Notes under the pieces: generated by a model
Seen by the model: only the letters and a program-made list of their open reading frames with translations
Told to the model about the DNA's origin: nothing
The model's database searches: none
In this document: piece by piece, positions 52,504 through 56,769 of the stretch
Layout of the letters: each line of letters starts with the position of its first letter
Numbering within the stretch: the first letter of the stretch is position 1
NCBI RefSeq assembly: GCF_003018235.1
Contig: NZ_CP027437.1
DNA: 64,000 nucleotides
Reading direction: 5' to 3' (one strand)
Source: Escherichia coli
GTDB lineage: Bacteria; Pseudomonadota; Gammaproteobacteria; Enterobacterales; Enterobacteriaceae
Position numbers and translations under genes: made by a program

Positions 52504-52695
52504 ATGCTAACACTGCCGCACTTCCAGTTTATCTACGCGTTAATGGGTGCTGAAAGGATCCTGTTCTCCGTCGATTATCCCTATCAGACCCTGGACGGTG
52601 TAAAAACCTTTATAGACAGTCTGCCCGTCAACAAGGCTGAAAAAGAGGCCATCGCGTTTCGCAATGCAGAACGTTTACTGGGCATCACGGTTTAG
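52504..52695 (+). pseudogene. C-terminal fragment of an amidohydrolase-superfamily (Amidohydro_2-like) protein
   Basis: 63-aa ORF ...ERILFSVDYPYQTLDG... resembling the C-terminal metal-binding strand of such enzymes, with no upstream coding continuation. Confidence 0.5.
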
Positions 52696-52845
52696 TTCAC
52701 CGTTTCATGATGACTGAGCACATTGTGATCAGCCGACAATTATTAGTTTTTGCCTAAAAGTGAATGAGCCTTTACTGCTCTAAAAAAATAATGTTGTCAC
52801 TCTATACTGGATTTAATATTCACCAAAGATGTTTAACTGATTGAA

Positions 52846-53418
52846 ATGAAAAATATCCTTGTTATTTCAGGTCATCCTGAGCTTACCCATTCCGTCGCCA
52901 ATGCCACTATTCTTGATGAAGTGGAGACCGCCCTTCCCGATGTTGAGATTCGTCGTCTGGACAGGCTCTATCCGGATGGCAAATTCAACATCGCGGCGGA
53001 GCAGAAAAGCCTGCTCAGGGCCGATGTGATTGTCTGGCAGTTCCCTTTTTCCTGGTATGGGCTGCCAGGATTAATGAAAAAATGGCTGGACGAGGTCTTT
53101 GTTCACGGCTTCGCGCATGGCTCAACGGCGAAACTGGGCGGTAAAAAGCTGATCCTCTCCTTTACAACGGGAGCGCCAGATGAGCTCTATACCGTCGACA
53201 GTTTCTTTGGCCATACCATTGAAGAGTATCTAATTCCGTTCGAGACCACAGCAAAACTGTGCAATCTTGAGCTGCTGGCGCCGGTTTATACCTGCGGTAT
53301 CAGCTATGCCGATCGGGATGCCGACAAACTCGCGCAGCAAAAAACGCTTGCCCGGGAACACGCTTCAAGGCTTGTCGATCTGCTCAATTCCGTCGTGAAT
53401 AATCCAGAGGGAGAATAA
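52846..53418 (+). CDS. Flavodoxin-like fold NAD(P)H dehydrogenase (quinone) family protein (KefF/MdaB-like)
   Basis: 190 aa, MKNILVISGHPELTHSVANATIL..., motif pattern of Flavodoxin_2-type FMN reductases. Confidence 0.75.
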   Translation: MKNILVISGHPELTHSVANATILDEVETALPDVEIRRLDRLYPDGKFNIAAEQKSLLRADVIVWQFPFSWYGLPGLMKKWLDEVFVHGFAHGSTAKLGGKKLILSFTTGAPDELYTVDSFFGHTIEEYLIPFETTAKLCNLELLAPVYTCGISYADRDADKLAQQKTLAREHASRLVDLLNSVVNNPEGE

Positions 53419-53420
53419 CA

Positions 53421-54440
53421 ATGCAGTATACCCGGCTCGGTAAAAGTGACTTACTTGTTTCCCGCATCTGCATGGGATGCATGGGGTTTGGCGATCCGTC
53501 GACGGGTCAGCATAGCTGGACGCTGGACGAAACAGCAAGCCGCGACATCATTCGCTATGGCCTTGAAAAGGGCATCAACTTTTACGATACCGCTATAGCC
53601 TACCAGAATGGCTCCAGTGAGCGATACGTTGGCCGGGCATTACGGGAGATGGCGAAACGCGATGATATCGTCCTGGCCACCAAGTTTCTGCCGCGAACCC
53701 CCGCACAAATTGCCGGAGGGATCAGCGGAAAAGAGGCAATCGCTCAATCCCTTGACCAGAGCCTGAAGAATCTGGGGATGGACTATATCGACCTCTACAT
53801 CTACCACATCTGGGATTACAACACGCCCATTATCGACGTGCTTGAAGCGTTACATACCGCTGTTAATGCTGGCAAAGTACGAGCTGTTGGTATTTCAAAC
53901 TGCTATGCCTGGCAGCTGGCGAAGGCGAACGCCCTTGCTGAACGCGAAGGGCTGACGCCCTTTGTTTCCGTACAGAGCCACTACAATCTAATTATGCGCG
54001 AAGATGAACGGGAGCTCTTCGGCCTGTGCACTGAGGATAATATCGCAATGACCCCCTATAGCGCGCTGGCCAGCGGCCGCCTCTCTCGTAAAGAAGGCTA
54101 TACACGGCGAGCCACAGAGGATGACTATGCGCGTGGAAAATATGACAGCACGGCTGAACAGGATCGCAGCATTATTGAGCGTGTAGCCGAACTGGCCGAA
54201 CGCCATCTGGTGTCAATGACGGAAATATCTCTCGCTTGGCTGCTGACAAAAGTCACATCACCTGTCGTAGGGGCTACAAAAAAAGCTCATGTCGATGGCG
54301 CGGTAAACGCAGTAAATCTTCAACTAAGTCCGGAGGAAATTCAGTTTCTGGAAGAAACCTACCAGCCGCATGTTCTGACGGGGATCATGGCGCAAAATAC
54401 GCCGCAAACGAAAGATGTTAAGCAGGTCTGGATGCGATAG
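53421..54440 (+). CDS. Aldo-keto reductase (Tas/YajO-like)
   Basis: 339 aa, MQYTRLGKSDLLVSRICMGCMGFG..., translationally coupled to the upstream gene (2-nt gap). Confidence 0.85.
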   Translation: MQYTRLGKSDLLVSRICMGCMGFGDPSTGQHSWTLDETASRDIIRYGLEKGINFYDTAIAYQNGSSERYVGRALREMAKRDDIVLATKFLPRTPAQIAGGISGKEAIAQSLDQSLKNLGMDYIDLYIYHIWDYNTPIIDVLEALHTAVNAGKVRAVGISNCYAWQLAKANALAEREGLTPFVSVQSHYNLIMREDERELFGLCTEDNIAMTPYSALASGRLSRKEGYTRRATEDDYARGKYDSTAEQDRSIIERVAELAERHLVSMTEISLAWLLTKVTSPVVGATKKAHVDGAVNAVNLQLSPEEIQFLEETYQPHVLTGIMAQNTPQTKDVKQVWMR

Positions 54441-54555
54441 CCCTTATTCACTTTTCCTCCTCTCGTCTTTGAGAGCGCCAGTAGCGGTCGGTTACGTTCT
54501 TACCAGCACCAGTTGATCGAACGTCTTAAACAGTAATGTCAGTAAAAAGATCATC

Positions 54556-55281
54556 GTGAAAAAGACTTTTATGCTTTTAATTTGCATGCTAATAAGCAGC
54601 CCTGTCTTTGCAACAAAACCGGACGCGCCGAATAAGCCGGAGATGAATATCTTCGAGCTCGGCATCAGACCCGATCGGGACAACGACTTTGCAGACGTGG
54701 CCAGACAGACGATTTCCGCTTCGGTTGATCATGAAGCAGGTACACTGGCGATGTATGCCCTGCAACGCAGCGACAATTCAGGTCAGGCATTCATGTTCGA
54801 ACTCTATGAAAATGAGCGTGCTTATCGCAAACATCTCAATGCCGCCCCATACAAAGCATTCGCTGCTCGTGCACCTGACATTATTGACAGGAAGAAGAAA
54901 ATTACCCTGGAGCCACAGTTTCTGGGCGACAAACACATCATACCGAATGAACGAACTATCAATAATCTGGTGATCGTCGAAGTAAAGCCTGAATTTCAGA
55001 GCGAATTTAGAAACATCGTCCTTCCTGAAATGGTCGAGTCGCTCAAAGTAGAGAAATGCGTGTTAGCCATGTATGCCGGTACAGATTCAGAGACTCCAAA
55101 ACGCTGGTATTTCTATGAGATTTACGCCAGTGAGGAGGATTATCAACTGCACCGACAAACGCTGCACTTCCTAGATTACCTCAGGCAAACGGCGCATATG
55201 AGCGCCAGGAAGGACGCAATCCCGGTAAAACCGGTATTTCTTCGTAACAAAGGCGGAATCAAACAGGAGCCGCAACGTTGA
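54556..55281 (+). CDS. Exported protein with two tandem ABM (antibiotic-biosynthesis-monooxygenase / Dabb-like) domains
   Basis: 241 aa; signal peptide MKKTFMLLICMLISSPVFA; two repeats of the ABM pattern. Start is either GTG 54556 or ATG 54571. Confidence 0.7.
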   Translation: MKKTFMLLICMLISSPVFATKPDAPNKPEMNIFELGIRPDRDNDFADVARQTISASVDHEAGTLAMYALQRSDNSGQAFMFELYENERAYRKHLNAAPYKAFAARAPDIIDRKKKITLEPQFLGDKHIIPNERTINNLVIVEVKPEFQSEFRNIVLPEMVESLKVEKCVLAMYAGTDSETPKRWYFYEIYASEEDYQLHRQTLHFLDYLRQTAHMSARKDAIPVKPVFLRNKGGIKQEPQR

Positions 55282-55296
55282 CCAGTAAGGATTAAC

Positions 55297-56100
55297 ATGA
55301 AAAGCGTACTTGCAGCAGCGGCTATGTCGCTTGTTATTTCTGATTTTGCTAATGCTGAGGAAACAAGAGGTAAAGCTATGATGAAAATAGAACCGTCAGC
55401 GATTTCGGAAGCTGATATTCGTTCCGTCTCACCGGCTCTCGCGCGCTTTGGTCGCGAAGCTATTACTGAAGATCTGTGGACACGCGACGCCCTCTCACCG
55501 AGGGATCGTAGTGTGGTGACCGTCGCCATGCTGATTGCCCGCAACCAGCCTGCCGAGCTTAAGCACTATATTGACGTCGCTCTCGATAGCGGCGTGACGC
55601 CAGCGGAATTATCAGAAATCATTACCCATCTGGCGTTCTACTCAGGTTGGCCAAATGCAATGTCAGCCGTCAGCGTGACCAAAGCAGTATTTGAAACTCG
55701 TGGCGTCACGCCAGATGCGCTTCCTGACGCTTCTCCGGACCTGCTTCCTCTCAATCAGGAAGCAGAAAAGCAGCGTTCAGAGACAGTGGAAAAAAATGTT
55801 GGCCCAATATCTCCAGGCCTGGTTAAATTCACTGCTGATCCACTCTTCCTGGATCTATGGCAAAGACCCGCGCTGAAACCCCGCGACAGAAGCCTGATTA
55901 CGGTCAGCGCCTTAATCGCATCCGGACAGAGCGCGCAGATTGGCTATCACCTCAATAGAGCAATGGATAATGGACTTTCTGTTGAGGAAGCTGGTGAGAT
56001 CGTTACCCAGGCCGCCTTCTATGCTGGCTGGCCAAACGCATTTACCGCTGCTCCGGTTGTGGGAGAGGTGCTAAACAATCGATCATCGAGTAAAAGGTAA
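55297..56100 (+). CDS. Exported protein with two tandem carboxymuconolactone decarboxylase (CMD/AhpD-like) domains
   Basis: 267 aa; signal peptide MKSVLAAAAMSLVISDFANA; two copies of the CMD pattern (...HLAFYSGWPNA... and ...QAAFYAGWPNA...); AAGGA RBS. Confidence 0.75.
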   Translation: MKSVLAAAAMSLVISDFANAEETRGKAMMKIEPSAISEADIRSVSPALARFGREAITEDLWTRDALSPRDRSVVTVAMLIARNQPAELKHYIDVALDSGVTPAELSEIITHLAFYSGWPNAMSAVSVTKAVFETRGVTPDALPDASPDLLPLNQEAEKQRSETVEKNVGPISPGLVKFTADPLFLDLWQRPALKPRDRSLITVSALIASGQSAQIGYHLNRAMDNGLSVEEAGEIVTQAAFYAGWPNAFTAAPVVGEVLNNRSSSKR

Positions 56101-56201
56101 CATTACCGAACACTAAAACTTGACGCACATCACAACATTAGAACGAACAGTTCATGAACCAATAAGCGTAACATCGAGTGATTTATGGACAGCGTTTAAC
56201 A

Positions 56202-56232
56202 CAGTTATGAACCAAAACTGAGTTCATAACTG
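56202..56232. promoter_or_regulatory. Perfect inverted repeat CAGTTATGAAC-N9-GTTCATAACTG in a non-coding stretch (a related GTTCATGAAC palindrome lies at 56150-56159)
   Basis: Seen directly in the sequence; function unknown (operator or degraded element end). Confidence 0.3.
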
Positions 56233-56514
56233 TGAGTTTGAATCGCCATTTGATTAATATCCATTTAAAACAGTTTGTTATGCTGTTTCTGGTGCTGAAG
56301 TCAATTATGTATATCCCTCAAACCCAGAATAGTTAAATGGAATTTGAGTGATGCGAAGCGATTTTCCAGTCGTCGTTATTACTTCAGGGTTCCAGAACAT
56401 AAAGCCTCTCCTCTTTCATGATTGGCCTGTGCATACCGGATATAGGCTGGCTGGTATGCAGGTTTGCCGTTTGCCGCATCTTCCCTGCGTTGAAGAGTCA
56501 GGCTGGCAAACCGC

Positions 56515-56769
56515 GTGCAAATGAACACCCCCACTTTCCATCAACACTTCAGACAGCTTGCGGGAATGAGTCCACTCCGGTATCAGAAATGGCTACGCCT
56601 CAATGAAGCCAGGCGACTGATGCTGAATGAACATTACGATGTCACCACTGCAGCCTATGCTGTCGGTTACGAAAGCTTATCCCATTTCAGTCGGGAATAT
56701 TCGCGGATGTTTGGAGAGTCACCTAAGAGAGATATTACCGGGTTAAGAAAGTCTGTCGGTCAGCTTTAA
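56515..56769 (+). pseudogene. yneL: AraC-family regulator, C-terminal HTH fragment only (yneL-like)
   Basis: 84-aa ORF ...FHQHFRQLAGMSPLRYQKWLRLNEARRLM...VGYESLSHFSREYSRMFGESP: second half of an AraC DNA-binding domain with no N-terminal domain. Confidence 0.7.

Follow-up and report, generated by a model that had tools for sequence, protein, structure and literature searches.

Four co-directional genes downstream of hipA in the window (the whole 64-kb stretch of Escherichia coli DNA that was analysed) encode a Flavodoxin_2 protein, an aldo-keto reductase (AKR) and two predicted exported proteins, one with tandem ABM domains (ABM2) and one with tandem CMD domains (CMD2). They are read here as the second unit of a horizontally spread, LysR-controlled cluster that likely serves as an inducible electrophile defence and that is orphaned in this strain, a reading which as a whole has about an even chance of being correct. 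A first-pass annotation had proposed the four genes as an undescribed system in their own right. An experimental description of these genes or of the cluster was not found in the literature by family names or RefSeq protein accessions, in keeping with that status; the genes are, however, the distal unit of a larger cluster, of which Enterobacter and Dickeya carry complete copies.

Table 1. Features of the island and its borders (window coordinates)
Feature	Coordinates	Strand	Description and basis
hipA terminator hairpin	52160-52198	+	14-bp perfect stem and T run; inverted repeat, 100% complementary
Junction sequence replacing LysR and unit 1	52162-52448	.	~287 bp, non-coding; blastn against E. 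coli 1190
Amidohydro_2 3' remnant, last gene of lost unit 1	52486-52695	+	homologous to E. coli 1190 from 52486 onwards
LysR-type (T-N11-A) operator box, predicted	52739-52757	+	ATTATTAGTTTTTGCCTAA, of the form ATTATTAG-N7-CTAA; conserved block, motif counts
Putative -10 hexamer	52803-52808	+	TATACT; conservation, putative LysR-dependent promoter
Flavodoxin_2 protein gene	52846-53418	+	190 aa, cytoplasmic; Pfam, NCBIfam, PDB and K-12 MdaB comparisons
Aldo-keto reductase (AKR) gene	53421-54440	+	339 aa; NCBIfam and PDB relatives
Remnant of exported KefF-like Flavodoxin_2 gene (p202)	54456-54536	+	last 26 codons and stop; tblastn, blastn
Tandem-ABM (ABM2) gene	54556-55281	+	241 aa, GTG start, predicted exported; Pfam
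ABM2 signal peptide, predicted	54556-54612	+	residues 1-19, MKKTFMLLICMLISSPVFA|TK, cleavage VFA|TK
Tandem-CMD (CMD2) gene	55297-56100	+	267 aa, predicted exported; Pfam
CMD2 signal peptide, predicted	55297-55356	+	residues 1-20, MKSVLAAAAMSLVISDFANA|EE, cleavage ANA|EE
Non-coding right end of island	56101-56331	.	genome comparisons
yneL remnant, AraC-family C-terminal helix-turn-helix	56515-56769	+	NCBIfam AraC-family models, C-terminal part only

Parent cluster and its distribution

All four open reading frames are intact and lie where the first-pass annotation placed them, and Pfam confirms their domains. Spacings are 2 nt between the Flavodoxin_2 and AKR genes, 115 nt between AKR and ABM2 and 15 nt between ABM2 and CMD2. 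Values of dN/dS against Enterobacter range from 0.06 to 0.27 (0.06 for the AKR) and are consistent with purifying selection.

In Enterobacter bugandensis and Dickeya zeae, the intact cluster consists of a divergent LysR gene and two transcription units. Unit 1 encodes a 102-amino-acid protein, a DJ-1/PfpI protein, an AKR and an Amidohydro_2 (PF04909) protein; unit 2 encodes the Flavodoxin_2 protein, an AKR, ABM2 and CMD2. The cluster thus has eight genes plus LysR, or nine with the gene for an exported KefF-like flavoprotein, which is also present in unit 2 of some genera. By this synteny, the window's four genes are the distal (second) transcription unit of the LysR-controlled cluster.

The cluster has spread horizontally and is widely distributed among bacteria of guts and plants. 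From a scan of 100,044 species genomes, 42 tandem-ABM loci were taken for a neighbourhood survey, in which ABM2 neighbours LysR, Flavodoxin_2 and/or AKR genes in Enterobacterales, Pasteurellaceae, Neisseriaceae and Acinetobacter, and adjoins AKR, Flavodoxin_2 or Amidohydro_2 genes in Streptococcus and Lactobacillus. Most hosts belong to Enterobacterales that live with plants or in soil, including Dickeya, Pectobacterium, Pantoea, Erwinia, Rahnella and Serratia. From genus to genus the genes form a changing mosaic. Nearly every cluster includes the quinone-reductase homologue, while DJ-1 and the first AKR are missing from many. Klebsiella has a core version (LysR, the 102-amino-acid protein, Flavodoxin_2, AKR and CMD2) with CMD2 but no ABM2, and the converse, ABM2 but no CMD2, is seen in Neisseriaceae and Pasteurellaceae; the two tandem-domain proteins are therefore not obligately paired. 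Additional recruits are a nitroreductase, a short-chain dehydrogenase, a Zn-dependent alcohol dehydrogenase, a YciI-like protein and a second flavodoxin-like protein; the recruited oxidoreductases are typical of quinone/electrophile regulons.

Within E. coli the island is polymorphic, and its suggested status as an accessory insertion between hipA and yneL is correct. At least 80% of window positions 52300-56900 is present in 453 of 5426 complete genomes, nearly the whole cluster is found in 441 E. coli genomes, and the island is absent from K-12, CFT073 and Sakai. The K-12 sequence has the yneL remnant directly after hipA, so the adjacency given in the first-pass annotation is correct. At the left border, the hipA terminator should, from its predicted structure, keep hipBA transcription from running on into the island. 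At the right border, homology resumes at 56332 in island-free E. coli (e.g. ECONIH1) and at 56560 in K-12. Both gene remnants described as flanking the four genes, an amidohydrolase 3' end and an AraC C-terminus, are present. The latter, yneL, is annotated in RefSeq as a pseudogene 'missing N-terminus', and the N-terminus is absent in every genome inspected. It belongs to the backbone beside the F9 (ydeQRST) fimbrial operon and is outside the island.

Deletions in the window strain

Genome comparison shows that ~3.7 kb containing the LysR gene and unit 1 is deleted from the window strain. The open reading frame at 52504-52695 represents the last 63 codons of the Amidohydro_2 gene, and the intact 344-amino-acid E. 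bugandensis gene ends identically. Related copies of the ~287-bp junction sequence, with 80-90% identity, are found in multiple copies on chromosomes and plasmids of 945 E. coli genomes; the sequence matches no Rfam family and its predicted fold is no better than chance. The observation that no intact regulator is present holds for the window, but this is a strain-specific deletion and not a feature of the system, and the operator remains.

A further deletion, of 952 bp relative to positions 8947-9898 of locus L012 (blastn), is older than the ~3.7-kb deletion and is located at the p202 remnant, where 24 of 26 residues are identical to a Rahnella rivi protein (tblastn). The 115-nt gap between AKR and ABM2 is therefore not a plain spacer, as it contains the last 26 codons of the deleted p202 gene. 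An intact p202 gene is found directly upstream of ABM2 in six species, and the N-termini of its products are Tat-like or signal sequences.

Operator and promoter

The operator box, 107 nt before the Flavodoxin_2 start codon, falls in a ~75-nt block whose conservation extends from E. coli to Serratia, in contrast to the diverging sequence on either side. Within the 64-kb window the box has no other exact match (chance expectation 0.61 at ≤1 mismatch). The consensus, ATTATTAR-N7-CTAA, occurs once per transcription unit, 104-125 nt upstream of the first gene where measured, except at locus L016, where the box is ~190 nt from AKR1. In the intact cluster both units have it, some 107-111 nt ahead of their first start codons. 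A box lies beside the LysR gene wherever the locus reaches that far. It is also present in Neisseria and Eikenella, and in Chimaeribacter it is directly upstream of ABM2-CMD2.

Downstream of the box, CTATACTGG is nearly invariant in eight genera, with TATAAT in Rahnella; TATACT is also found downstream of the box in the intergenic region between LysR and the 102-amino-acid protein gene. A generic promoter scan does not call the -10 at 52803-52808, and the putative LysR-dependent promoter has no good -35. A poor -35 is usual in activator-dependent promoters.

Loss of LysR has orphaned the predicted operator in the window strain. With the operator orphaned and the strong hipA terminator ahead of them, we infer that the four genes are probably decaying and either silent or expressed at no more than a basal level; against this, another LysR-type regulator might activate them.

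Protein families and export

The 190-amino-acid flavoprotein contains a Flavodoxin_2 domain (Pfam, E = 2.6e-39). KefF is its best NCBIfam model (148 bits, under the 210-bit cut-off), its PDB relatives are GSP14, KefF, NQO1/2 and MdaB, and it is 29% identical to K-12 MdaB. By these comparisons it is a homologue of the NAD(P)H:quinone oxidoreductases KefF, MdaB and NQO1, in agreement with its first assignment as a flavodoxin-like NAD(P)H reductase. The assignment of the adjoining gene, 2 nt away, as an AKR is also supported by NCBIfam and by PDB relatives (IolS, DepB and others, ~1e-41), with every NCBIfam AKR model under its equivalog cut-off.

Pfam confirms both suspected duplications, with ABM domains at residues 32-104 and 141-209 of ABM2 and CMD domains at residues 54-129 and 176-255 of CMD2. 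ABM2 is homologous over its full length to PDB 3mcs and 3f44, and its nearest characterized relative is the isomerase LsrG. It is not specifically YgiN-like: BLASTP against YgiN gives E = 0.068, and the YgiN structure is absent among its PDB matches at E up to 10. CMD2 matches PDB 4g9q at 3e-73, and its best named matches are PcaC-type decarboxylases, with the NCBIfam PcaC model at 115 bits, under its 155.7-bit cut-off. CMD2 had been thought to carry AhpD-like redox domains, but it has no cysteine and hence no CxxC motif, and its motifs are PcaC-like. A DJ-1/CMD2 fusion protein is on record (P0271) and is counted as a possible functional link between the two families.

The N-termini of ABM2 and CMD2 look like Sec-type signals. 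Exported-type N-termini of the homologues have a basic n-region, a hydrophobic core of ~12-15 residues and AxA just before the conserved mature start. Among tandem-ABM homologues, a signal peptide is present in all diderm members, varying in sequence but keeping the n-h-AxA form, and in no monoderm members. The CMD2 N-terminus is conserved across genera, and signal peptides are found in about half of the near-full-length tandem-CMD representatives inspected. Since the 4g9q chain matches one of these signal-bearing representatives (P0247), it also appears to be an exported tandem-CMD protein. This comparative evidence favours the export of both proteins, as first suggested, but not the accompanying view that ABM and CMD proteins are normally cytoplasmic, which fails for the tandem subfamilies.

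It is very improbable that the hydrophobic N-termini are start-site artefacts or uncleaved membrane anchors, with all four proteins cytoplasmic and no two-compartment arrangement. In RefSeq, ABM2 begins at an internal ATG and is a 231-amino-acid product that lacks the n-region, some CMD2 homologues (e.g. Aeromonas, Enterobacter sp.) are annotated from an internal Met-Met at residues 28-29, and the E. coli Shine-Dalgarno before the ABM2 GTG is weak (AAAAAGA). However, the GTG with an AAAGG Shine-Dalgarno is conserved in 13 species, the N-termini vary freely yet keep n-region, core and AxA site, and the monoderm homologues and crystallized 3mcs and 3f44 start exactly at the predicted mature start.

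Possible functions

As to induction, substrates and enzyme activities, we infer a LysR-induced defence directed at quinones/hydroquinones first and carbonyls/lactones second. In the cytoplasm, the flavoprotein would carry out two-electron, NAD(P)H-dependent quinone reduction, and the AKR would reduce carbonyls with NADPH. The periplasmic arm, without NAD(P)H, would consist of two Sec-exported enzymes of cofactor-independent families, ABM2 as an oxygenase or tautomerase and the PcaC-like CMD2 as a decarboxylase or isomerase. Their target may be the compound itself or its reduced or oxidized product, before entry into the cytoplasm or after exit. The two-compartment module of the first-pass annotation is thus plausible in its cytoplasmic reductase and periplasmic arms, but not as a self-contained four-gene unit. 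Several points weigh against quinone defence: ABM2 is closer to an isomerase than to YgiN, the nearest named family of CMD2 is a decarboxylase of aromatic catabolism and not a detoxification enzyme, cytoplasmic re-reduction of a quinol that had been oxidized in the periplasm would amount to futile cycling, and the cluster has no conserved membrane or transport component.

It is unlikely that the genes are instead part of a pathway, now fragmentary, for the catabolism or conversion of an aromatic acid or lactone from plants. In such a pathway, CMD2, Amidohydro_2 and small alpha+beta-barrel proteins would act on a carboxylated lactone or phenolic, leaving the last steps to the reductases. The PcaC-type matches of CMD2, the plant and soil hosts and PF04909 in the intact cluster fit such a pathway; the Amidohydro_2 family includes decarboxylases and lactonases of aromatic catabolism. 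But CMD2 scores under the PcaC cut-off, ring-cleavage dioxygenases, CoA-transferases and thiolases were not observed among the clusters examined, and the only nearby transporter, an MFS gene with its own LysR in two genera, is outside the cluster. The exported enzymes would also be cut off from cytoplasmic steps, and mosaic gene content is more in line with a stress regulon than with a linear pathway. Defence against alpha-dicarbonyls or glycation, rather than quinones, is distinctly unlikely. DJ-1 would be a glyoxalase III/deglycase, the AKRs methylglyoxal/diketone reductases and ABM2 an LsrG-like tautomerase of diketones such as DPD, roles suggested by the best matches of both AKRs (YdjG methylglyoxal reductase), DJ-1 (HchA glyoxalase III), the flavoprotein (KefF) and ABM2 (LsrG). 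KefF is part of the KefC potassium-efflux system, which is activated by electrophiles. The YdjG, HchA and KefF matches are, however, far under equivalog cut-offs, it is DJ-1 and the first AKR that many clusters lack and not the quinone-reductase homologue, and the LsrG substrate is phosphorylated and cytoplasmic while ABM2 is predicted to be exported.

Two known systems are counted in favour of the proposed quinone defence. When Neisseria meets an electrophilic lactone or quinones, its LysR-type regulator CrgA activates a divergent mdaB (PMC2724274). CrgA (PDB 3hhg) is the second-best solved relative of the island's LysR; the relationship is only a distant one, which argues against the proposal. 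In K-12, a Flavodoxin_2 gene adjoins an ABM gene; this pair, mdaB-ygiN, is described in the literature as a redox cycle between menaquinone and menaquinol (PMC3686733).

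Gene content and setting of the island

The first-pass annotation had described a tight, co-directional row of four genes between hipA and yneL, encoding a flavodoxin-like reductase, an aldo-keto reductase (AKR) and two proteins with duplicated ABM and CMD domains. This description is borne out. The six-frame ORF list shows four co-directional open reading frames with gaps of 2, 115 and 15 nt, a Pfam search identifies Flavodoxin_2 and both duplications, and the AKR is recognised through NCBIfam and PDB relatives. The proteins with duplicated domains are termed here ABM2 (tandem ABM) and CMD2 (tandem CMD). 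The two gene remnants said to bracket the row, of an amidohydrolase and of an AraC-family regulator, have both been identified as C-terminal pieces, the former by its match to an intact Enterobacter bugandensis protein and the latter by NCBIfam and RefSeq.

Coordinates of the island genes, the flanking remnants and intact p202 genes (window positions, or positions within the named locus of another genome)
Feature	Position	Strand	Length	Assignment
Left flanking ORF	52504-52695		63 codons	C-terminus of 344-aa Amidohydro_2 protein, intact in Enterobacter bugandensis
Flavodoxin_2	52846-53418	+		Pfam 2.6e-39, residues 2-169
AKR	53421-54440	+		NCBIfam and PDB relatives
ABM2	54556-55281	+		Pfam ABM twice: residues 32-104 (4.7e-11), 141-209 (9.3e-10)
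CMD2	55297-56100	+		Pfam CMD twice: residues 54-129, 176-255
Right flanking ORF	56515-56769		84 codons	yneL remnant: AraC-family C-terminal helix-turn-helix; RefSeq 'missing N-terminus'
p202, Rahnella (L012)	9382-9981			intact gene
p202, locus L009	2282-2890			intact gene
p202, locus L014	9363-9959			intact gene
p202, locus L015	9325-9957			intact gene
p202, Yersinia frederiksenii (L016)	9355-9954			intact gene
p202, locus L033	9271-9864			intact gene

The island is accessory, as had been proposed. At least 80% of window positions 52300-56900 is present in 453 of 5426 complete E. coli genomes, and in the same screen K-12, CFT073 and O157 Sakai are without it. The K-12 gene order stated there also holds, with hipA directly before the yneL remnant, followed by the ydeT-ydeQ fimbrial genes. 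The island has no tRNA gene, no significant flanking direct repeats and no mobility ORFs or genes, and its GC content of 0.44-0.54 is near that of the flanks, with no strong compositional shift. It thus varies by presence and absence but lacks the marks of a classical mobile island. Scanned against Rfam, positions 51900-57300 give only sub-threshold chance matches (Erse, 21.7 against 138 bits; ar35, 23.1 against 45). Upstream of hipBA, at 46651-50202, a large autotransporter gene of the ECSE_1600 family ends early and leaves an 1183-aa ORF; the gene is roughly 5.4 kb long in strain 1190 and is annotated as frameshifted in K-12 and ECONIH1.

The intact cluster and its relatives

A longer form of the island, of ∼7.5 kb, is found in E. 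coli strain 1190. There hipA is followed by a divergent LysR-type gene, genes for a 102-aa protein, a DJ-1/PfpI protein, an AKR and an amidohydrolase, and then the four genes. The amidohydrolase gene of this strain is broken by frameshifts into three annotated pieces (positions 5534-6210 of the strain 1190 locus, L001). Enterobacter bugandensis and Dickeya zeae share the gene order, with an intact amidohydrolase of 344 aa. The four genes put forward as a system are therefore all present, but they do not make up a unit complete in itself, since strain 1190, Enterobacter and Dickeya carry the larger cluster. Klebsiella variicola has a core version consisting of LysR, the 102-aa protein, Flavodoxin_2, AKR and CMD2.

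A tandem-ABM survey, in which 100,044 species genomes were scanned, yielded 42 loci. The ABM2 gene is accompanied by LysR, Flavodoxin_2 and AKR genes in Enterobacterales, Pasteurellaceae, Neisseriaceae and Acinetobacter, and by AKR, Flavodoxin_2 or Amidohydro_2 genes in Streptococcus and Lactobacillus. Variable members are DJ-1, the first AKR, the amidohydrolase, the 102-aa protein, a YciI-like 98-aa protein (in 13 loci), a short-chain dehydrogenase, a Zn-dependent alcohol dehydrogenase, a nitroreductase and, in Acinetobacter, an exported tandem CMD. CMD2 adjoins ABM2 in Enterobacterales only, and Klebsiella has CMD2 without ABM2, so that the two proteins are mutually independent. By eye, the 102-aa protein resembles a barrel of the muconolactone-isomerase or YciI type; this is unsupported, as the sole Pfam match is YCII at E = 0.34 and searches of NCBIfam and PDB are empty. 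Directly downstream of CMD2, a second divergent LysR gene together with an MFS transporter gene is present in Enterobacter (L002, 10664-13087) and Klebsiella (L005, 10165-12612). This pair may serve export or uptake in connection with the cluster, or be a mere neighbour.

Deletions and state of the window copy

The window matches strain 1190, at 99.66% identity, up to 52161 and again from 52486. Positions 2330-6000 of the strain 1190 locus are absent from the window, and with them LysR, the 102-aa gene, DJ-1, the first AKR and the greater part of the amidohydrolase. The junction itself is found in no complete E. coli genome of the collection, and the left part of the island is present in 441 E. 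coli genomes as against 453 for the right part. The lack of an intact regulator, as noted at first, is consequently a deletion in this strain and not a trait of the system; LysR is kept by the 441 E. coli genomes just mentioned and by further genera.

The lost stretch is replaced, exactly at the junction and right behind the hipA terminator, by a non-coding element of ∼287 bp (52162-52448), and a 26-bp backbone segment (strain 1190 2292-2317) is found on both sides of the element. Relatives of this element are 80-90% identical, with a core at about 52232-52396, and are unannotated in chromosomes and plasmids; they are present in 945 E. coli genomes, in up to 15 copies per genome. The 5′ end of a group II intron and a miniature transposable element were considered as identities and set aside: the element matches no Rfam family, its fold is not beyond chance (z = -0.34) and its terminal inverted repeats are weak.

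A further loss is found within the 115-nt gap. Positions 54456-54536 still encode the C-terminal 26 residues of a 199-aa protein, p202, 24 of them identical, together with its stop codon, and compared with Rahnella the window lacks 952 bp before the ABM2 gene. This loss of the p202 gene is second to, and older than, the deletion of ∼3.7 kb.

The four genes have been under purifying selection between species, as dN/dS values against Enterobacter bugandensis are 0.06-0.27. Compared with E. coli 1190 they show eight synonymous and seven nonsynonymous differences. Relative to the strain 1190 allele, the window flavoprotein has five changed residues, and ABM2 carries G168C (codon 55057-55059) at a glycine kept in all ten other aligned homologues. 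These changes are suggestive of relaxed constraint in the window copy after loss of the regulator; they are far too few for proof. Together with the frameshifted amidohydrolase of strain 1190 and the 952-bp and 3.7-kb deletions, these differences give a picture of stepwise decay of an acquired cluster.

Protein families

The Flavodoxin_2 protein belongs to the KefF/MdaB/NQO1 group, whose members reduce quinones by two electrons, its PDB relatives being KefF (2.7e-30), NQO1 (∼1e-16) and MdaB (1.7e-15). It is 29% identical to K-12 MdaB (E = 5e-23) and, judged by sequence similarity, is nearer to KefF and GSP14 than to MdaB. It is not KefF proper: it scores 148.4 bits against an equivalog cut-off of 210, and the cluster has no kefC gene. 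The AKR is generic by its NCBIfam and PDB relatives.

ABM2 is a member of the tandem-ABM family (PF03992 twice; a single-chain pseudo-dimer as in PDB 3mcs and 3f44), matching 3mcs at 4.2e-25 over residues 28-236. RefSeq names it a 'putative quinol monooxygenase', but it is not specifically related to YgiN: the K-12 protein is matched by BLASTP over only 43 residues, at E = 0.068. No YgiN chain is among the PDB matches of ABM2 at E up to 10, and its nearest characterised relatives are the LsrG isomerases.

CMD2 (267 aa) displays a PcaC-like motif, (H/Q)-x-A-F-Y-x-G-W-P, in both halves. The protein had been called AhpD-like; it has no cysteine, and hence no CxxC, and its close homologues likewise have none, which excludes thiol chemistry of the AhpD type. 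Assignment as PcaC itself (TIGR02425) also fails, at 115.3 bits against a cut-off of 155.7 and with reductase rather than pca genes as neighbours. Natural fusions are found of DJ-1/PfpI with tandem CMD (470 aa) and of a cupin with tandem CMD (∼400 aa), represented by library proteins P0271, P0245 and P0322. The DJ-1/PfpI fusion points to a functional link between CMD2 and the DJ-1 gene of the full island.

Predicted export of the tandem-domain proteins

Signal peptides were assessed by eye and with a hydropathy window. A Sec signal was taken to consist of a basic n-region, a hydrophobic h-region and small residues at -3 and -1, with a form but not a sequence shared among homologues, and both tandem proteins display it. 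The predicted signal of ABM2 is MKK, TFMLLICMLISSPVF and VFA|T, and that of CMD2 is MK, SVLAAAAMSLVIS and ANA|E. The Sec-like form is kept across genera and is absent in monoderm homologues, in agreement with the signal peptides first proposed for both proteins.

The start of ABM2 is a GTG codon after AAAGG, conserved in 13 species, with ATG in Pectobacterium versatile; E. coli has a weaker Shine-Dalgarno sequence, AAAAAGA. RefSeq and other sources place the start at internal ATG codons (window 54571 and 54586 rather than 54556; 8101 in the strain 1190 locus), which gives proteins of 231 or 236 aa. These starts remove the n-region of the signal, and export is therefore easily missed. In the 42-locus scan, every diderm ABM2 homologue whose 5′ end is on the contig has a varied N-terminus of signal-peptide form, with AxA directly before a conserved P-V-x-N-I-F-E-L, as in MKKYIMTLLAAISLSAQA|VPVFNIFELG (Neisseria) and MKTLLMTALMSATVAVQA|APVLNLFELG (Lautropia). 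The homologues of Streptococcus and Lactobacillus, like the crystallised 3mcs and 3f44, begin with the conserved core itself. This pattern of diderm and monoderm N-termini is hard to explain unless the ABM2 signal peptide is genuine. A lipoprotein signal ('LLIC') is rejected, the cysteine not being conserved and the -1 residue being unsuitable. In a metagenome-assembled genome of Veillonella sp., a diderm Firmicute, the tandem ABM forms the C-terminal part of a much longer ORF (L043, ∼8920-10645), with ∼360 extra N-terminal codons and its own signal peptide, MKFSTKAKSSTLALLLAVSVTAGSVWA.

The N-terminus of CMD2 is conserved in form across Enterobacterales. An exhaustive tandem-CMD profile search gave 199 clusters (50% identity) at E <= 1e-30, and about half of the 39 near-full-length representatives inspected have signal peptides, the rest being without. 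PDB 4g9q appears to be an exported form, as its chain matches the signal-bearing library protein P0247. Export of both ABM2 and CMD2 is thus predicted and well supported by the form of their N-termini, but the accompanying claim that such domains are normally cytoplasmic does not hold for these subfamilies, as exported forms are common among homologues.

The gene for p202 immediately precedes the tandem-ABM gene in Rahnella, Enterobacter sichuanensis, Pantoea, Yersinia and Propionivibrio. The protein is a Flavodoxin_2 homologue similar to KefF, and its N-terminus bears an export signal. In Rahnella, Yersinia artesiana and Propionivibrio, three of the six species, this signal is twin-arginine-like (MNRRDILQAALLLGSAALLPLNANA is an example). 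A flavodoxin-fold reductase homologue is unexpected in the periplasm, a compartment without NAD(P)H.

Operator and transcription

Within the 150 nt upstream of Flavodoxin_2, a block of ∼75 nt is conserved across genera as far apart as E. coli and Serratia, although the flanking coding sequence is only 72-80% identical. The core of the block, ATTATTAG-N7-CTAA at 52739-52757, includes a TAG-N7-CTA dyad and fits the T-N11-A rule of LysR-type regulators. A nearly invariant CTATACTGG follows the box by ∼45 nt (TATAAT in Rahnella), and the centre of the box lies ∼57 nt upstream of the conserved TATACT. LysR-activated operons have a T-N11-A site at about -65 to -75, ahead of a promoter whose '-35' is weak, and the window displays this arrangement with a putative operator. 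The box (ATTATTAR-N7-CTAA) and TATACT are repeated in the intergenic region between LysR and the 102-aa gene.

Each transcription unit in the loci compared has a single box. Where its distance was measured, it lies 104-125 nt before the first start codon; in Yersinia frederiksenii it is ∼190 nt from the first AKR gene. It is found upstream of the 102-aa gene and of Flavodoxin_2, the latter also in a Neisseria metagenome-assembled genome and in Eikenella, and in Chimaeribacter directly upstream of ABM2-CMD2. The site at 52739-52757 is the sole exact match in the 64-kb window, where 0.61 chance matches are expected at one mismatch or fewer. A one-mismatch copy at 5607-5629 (TTTATTAGAGCATGACTAAAAAT) is in an unrelated intergenic region, is compatible with chance and was discarded; it is near-palindromic, matches on both strands and adjoins recombinase-like and MFS-like transporter genes.

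Read-through from upstream is unlikely because hipA is followed by a perfect 14-bp hairpin with a T run. A generic promoter and terminator scan is uninformative, as its sites are no more numerous than in shuffled sequence and it detected neither the conserved -10 nor the hipA terminator. Comparison with strain 1190 shows that the cognate LysR gene is absent from the window. We conclude from these sequence features that the four genes probably form their own LysR-dependent transcription unit, of which the window retains the putative operator without the regulator, and we infer that the unit is silent in this strain.

Proposed function and alternatives

The mosaic cluster resembles quinone/electrophile stress regulons, with mdaB-ygiN and CrgA-mdaB as documented analogues. 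It is about an even call whether the cluster represents an inducible two-arm defence against quinones or electrophiles. In the cytoplasmic arm, the flavoprotein and AKR would carry out NAD(P)H-dependent reduction, and the periplasmic arm would consist of enzymes that need no cofactor. Such a cofactor-free arm fits with Sec export and with a periplasm that lacks NAD(P)H. A fragment of a catabolic pathway for plant aromatics or lactones is an unlikely alternative, as a mosaic of small oxidoreductases under a single LysR-type regulator favours a quinone/electrophile stress regulon over a linear catabolic pathway. Defence against dicarbonyls is slightly less probable again. That there is no export at all would agree with the RefSeq starts of ABM2; given the diderm and monoderm N-termini, it is the most improbable of these readings.

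A broader form of the two-arm defence against quinones or electrophiles is more tentative, and on balance we doubt it. Here the ancestral cluster would be a widespread, unrecognised two-compartment defence of diderms, in which one LysR sensor controls cytoplasmic NAD(P)H reductases together with periplasmic tandem ABM and cysteine-free tandem CMD, joined in some genera by a KefF-like flavoprotein exported through Tat, and which neutralises host or plant quinones or electrophilic lactones before they cross the inner membrane. In that case the chemistry of all three families, ABM, CMD and Flavodoxin_2, would take place where there is no NAD(P)H.

Should the model be right, a conserved, unstudied LysR regulon with a recognisable operator would be common to Enterobacterales, Neisseriaceae, Pasteurellaceae and Acinetobacter. 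The tandem ABM, the PcaC-like CMD and possibly the flavoprotein would represent a periplasmic first line against redox-active or electrophilic molecules of plants, hosts and competitors, and two structural-genomics folds (4g9q and 3mcs) would be given a function. The window copy itself is minor, an orphaned and partly deleted remnant in a minority of E. coli that mainly shows stepwise decay.

Comparison with known systems

The original biochemistry of the mdaB-ygiN quinone-quinol cycle is reportedly that of Adams and Jia (2005). As in the present cluster, K-12 mdaB-ygiN has a gene for a Flavodoxin_2 quinone-reductase homologue beside an ABM-domain gene in the same orientation, and the pair has been interpreted as a quinone-quinol redox cycle (PMC3686733). 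YgiN, however, is a single cytoplasmic ABM of 104 aa, whereas ABM2 is tandem, carries a signal peptide and is only marginally similar; beyond such a pair, the cluster has the AKR, the exported tandem CMD, and a LysR regulator of its own with an operator.

The mdaB gene of Neisseria meningitidis is activated by the divergently encoded CrgA, with quinones or the electrophilic lactone alpha-methylene-gamma-butyrolactone as inducers; here too a LysR-type gene and a Flavodoxin_2 reductase gene diverge from an intergenic region that contains T-N11-A sites (PMC2724274). CrgA (PDB 3hhg) is the second-best solved relative of the island LysR (E = 1.5e-26), but is only distantly related to it. A separate regulator, 57% identical to the island LysR, adjoins Flavodoxin_2 and ABM2 in a Neisseria metagenome-assembled genome. 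We know of no exported ABM or CMD proteins in the CrgA regulon.

The tandem architectures are already known, given the full-length homology to 4g9q and 3mcs. CMD2 matches 4g9q, a tandem CMD named '4-carboxymuconolactone decarboxylase', at E = 3e-73 over residues 25-262. The tandem-ABM structures 3mcs and 3f44 ('putative monooxygenase'), presumably from Fusobacterium and Lactobacillus, differ from ABM2 in having no signal peptides. To our knowledge none of the three structures has an assigned function. PcaC and AhpD represent the two characterised branches of Pfam CMD, and both halves of CMD2 share this domain; unlike them, CMD2 is tandem and exported, falls below the PcaC equivalog cut-off and is without pca neighbours or CxxC. 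The S. meliloti CMD is unrelated, being of the CxxC type and tied to an ECF41 sigma factor (PMC6180224). Literature searches on exported CMD or ABM proteins, on the combination of family names and under the five RefSeq protein accessions returned nothing relevant.

All component families are thus known, as are the tandem folds from solved structures, and RefSeq annotation is generic for all genes. What appears to be undescribed is a LysR regulon with a defined operator in which quinone-reductase and AKR genes are combined with those for exported tandem ABM and CMD proteins, some genera adding an exported flavoprotein. By analogy, we class the cluster as a probable member of the LysR-controlled quinone/electrophile defences of the mdaB-ygiN and CrgA-mdaB type.
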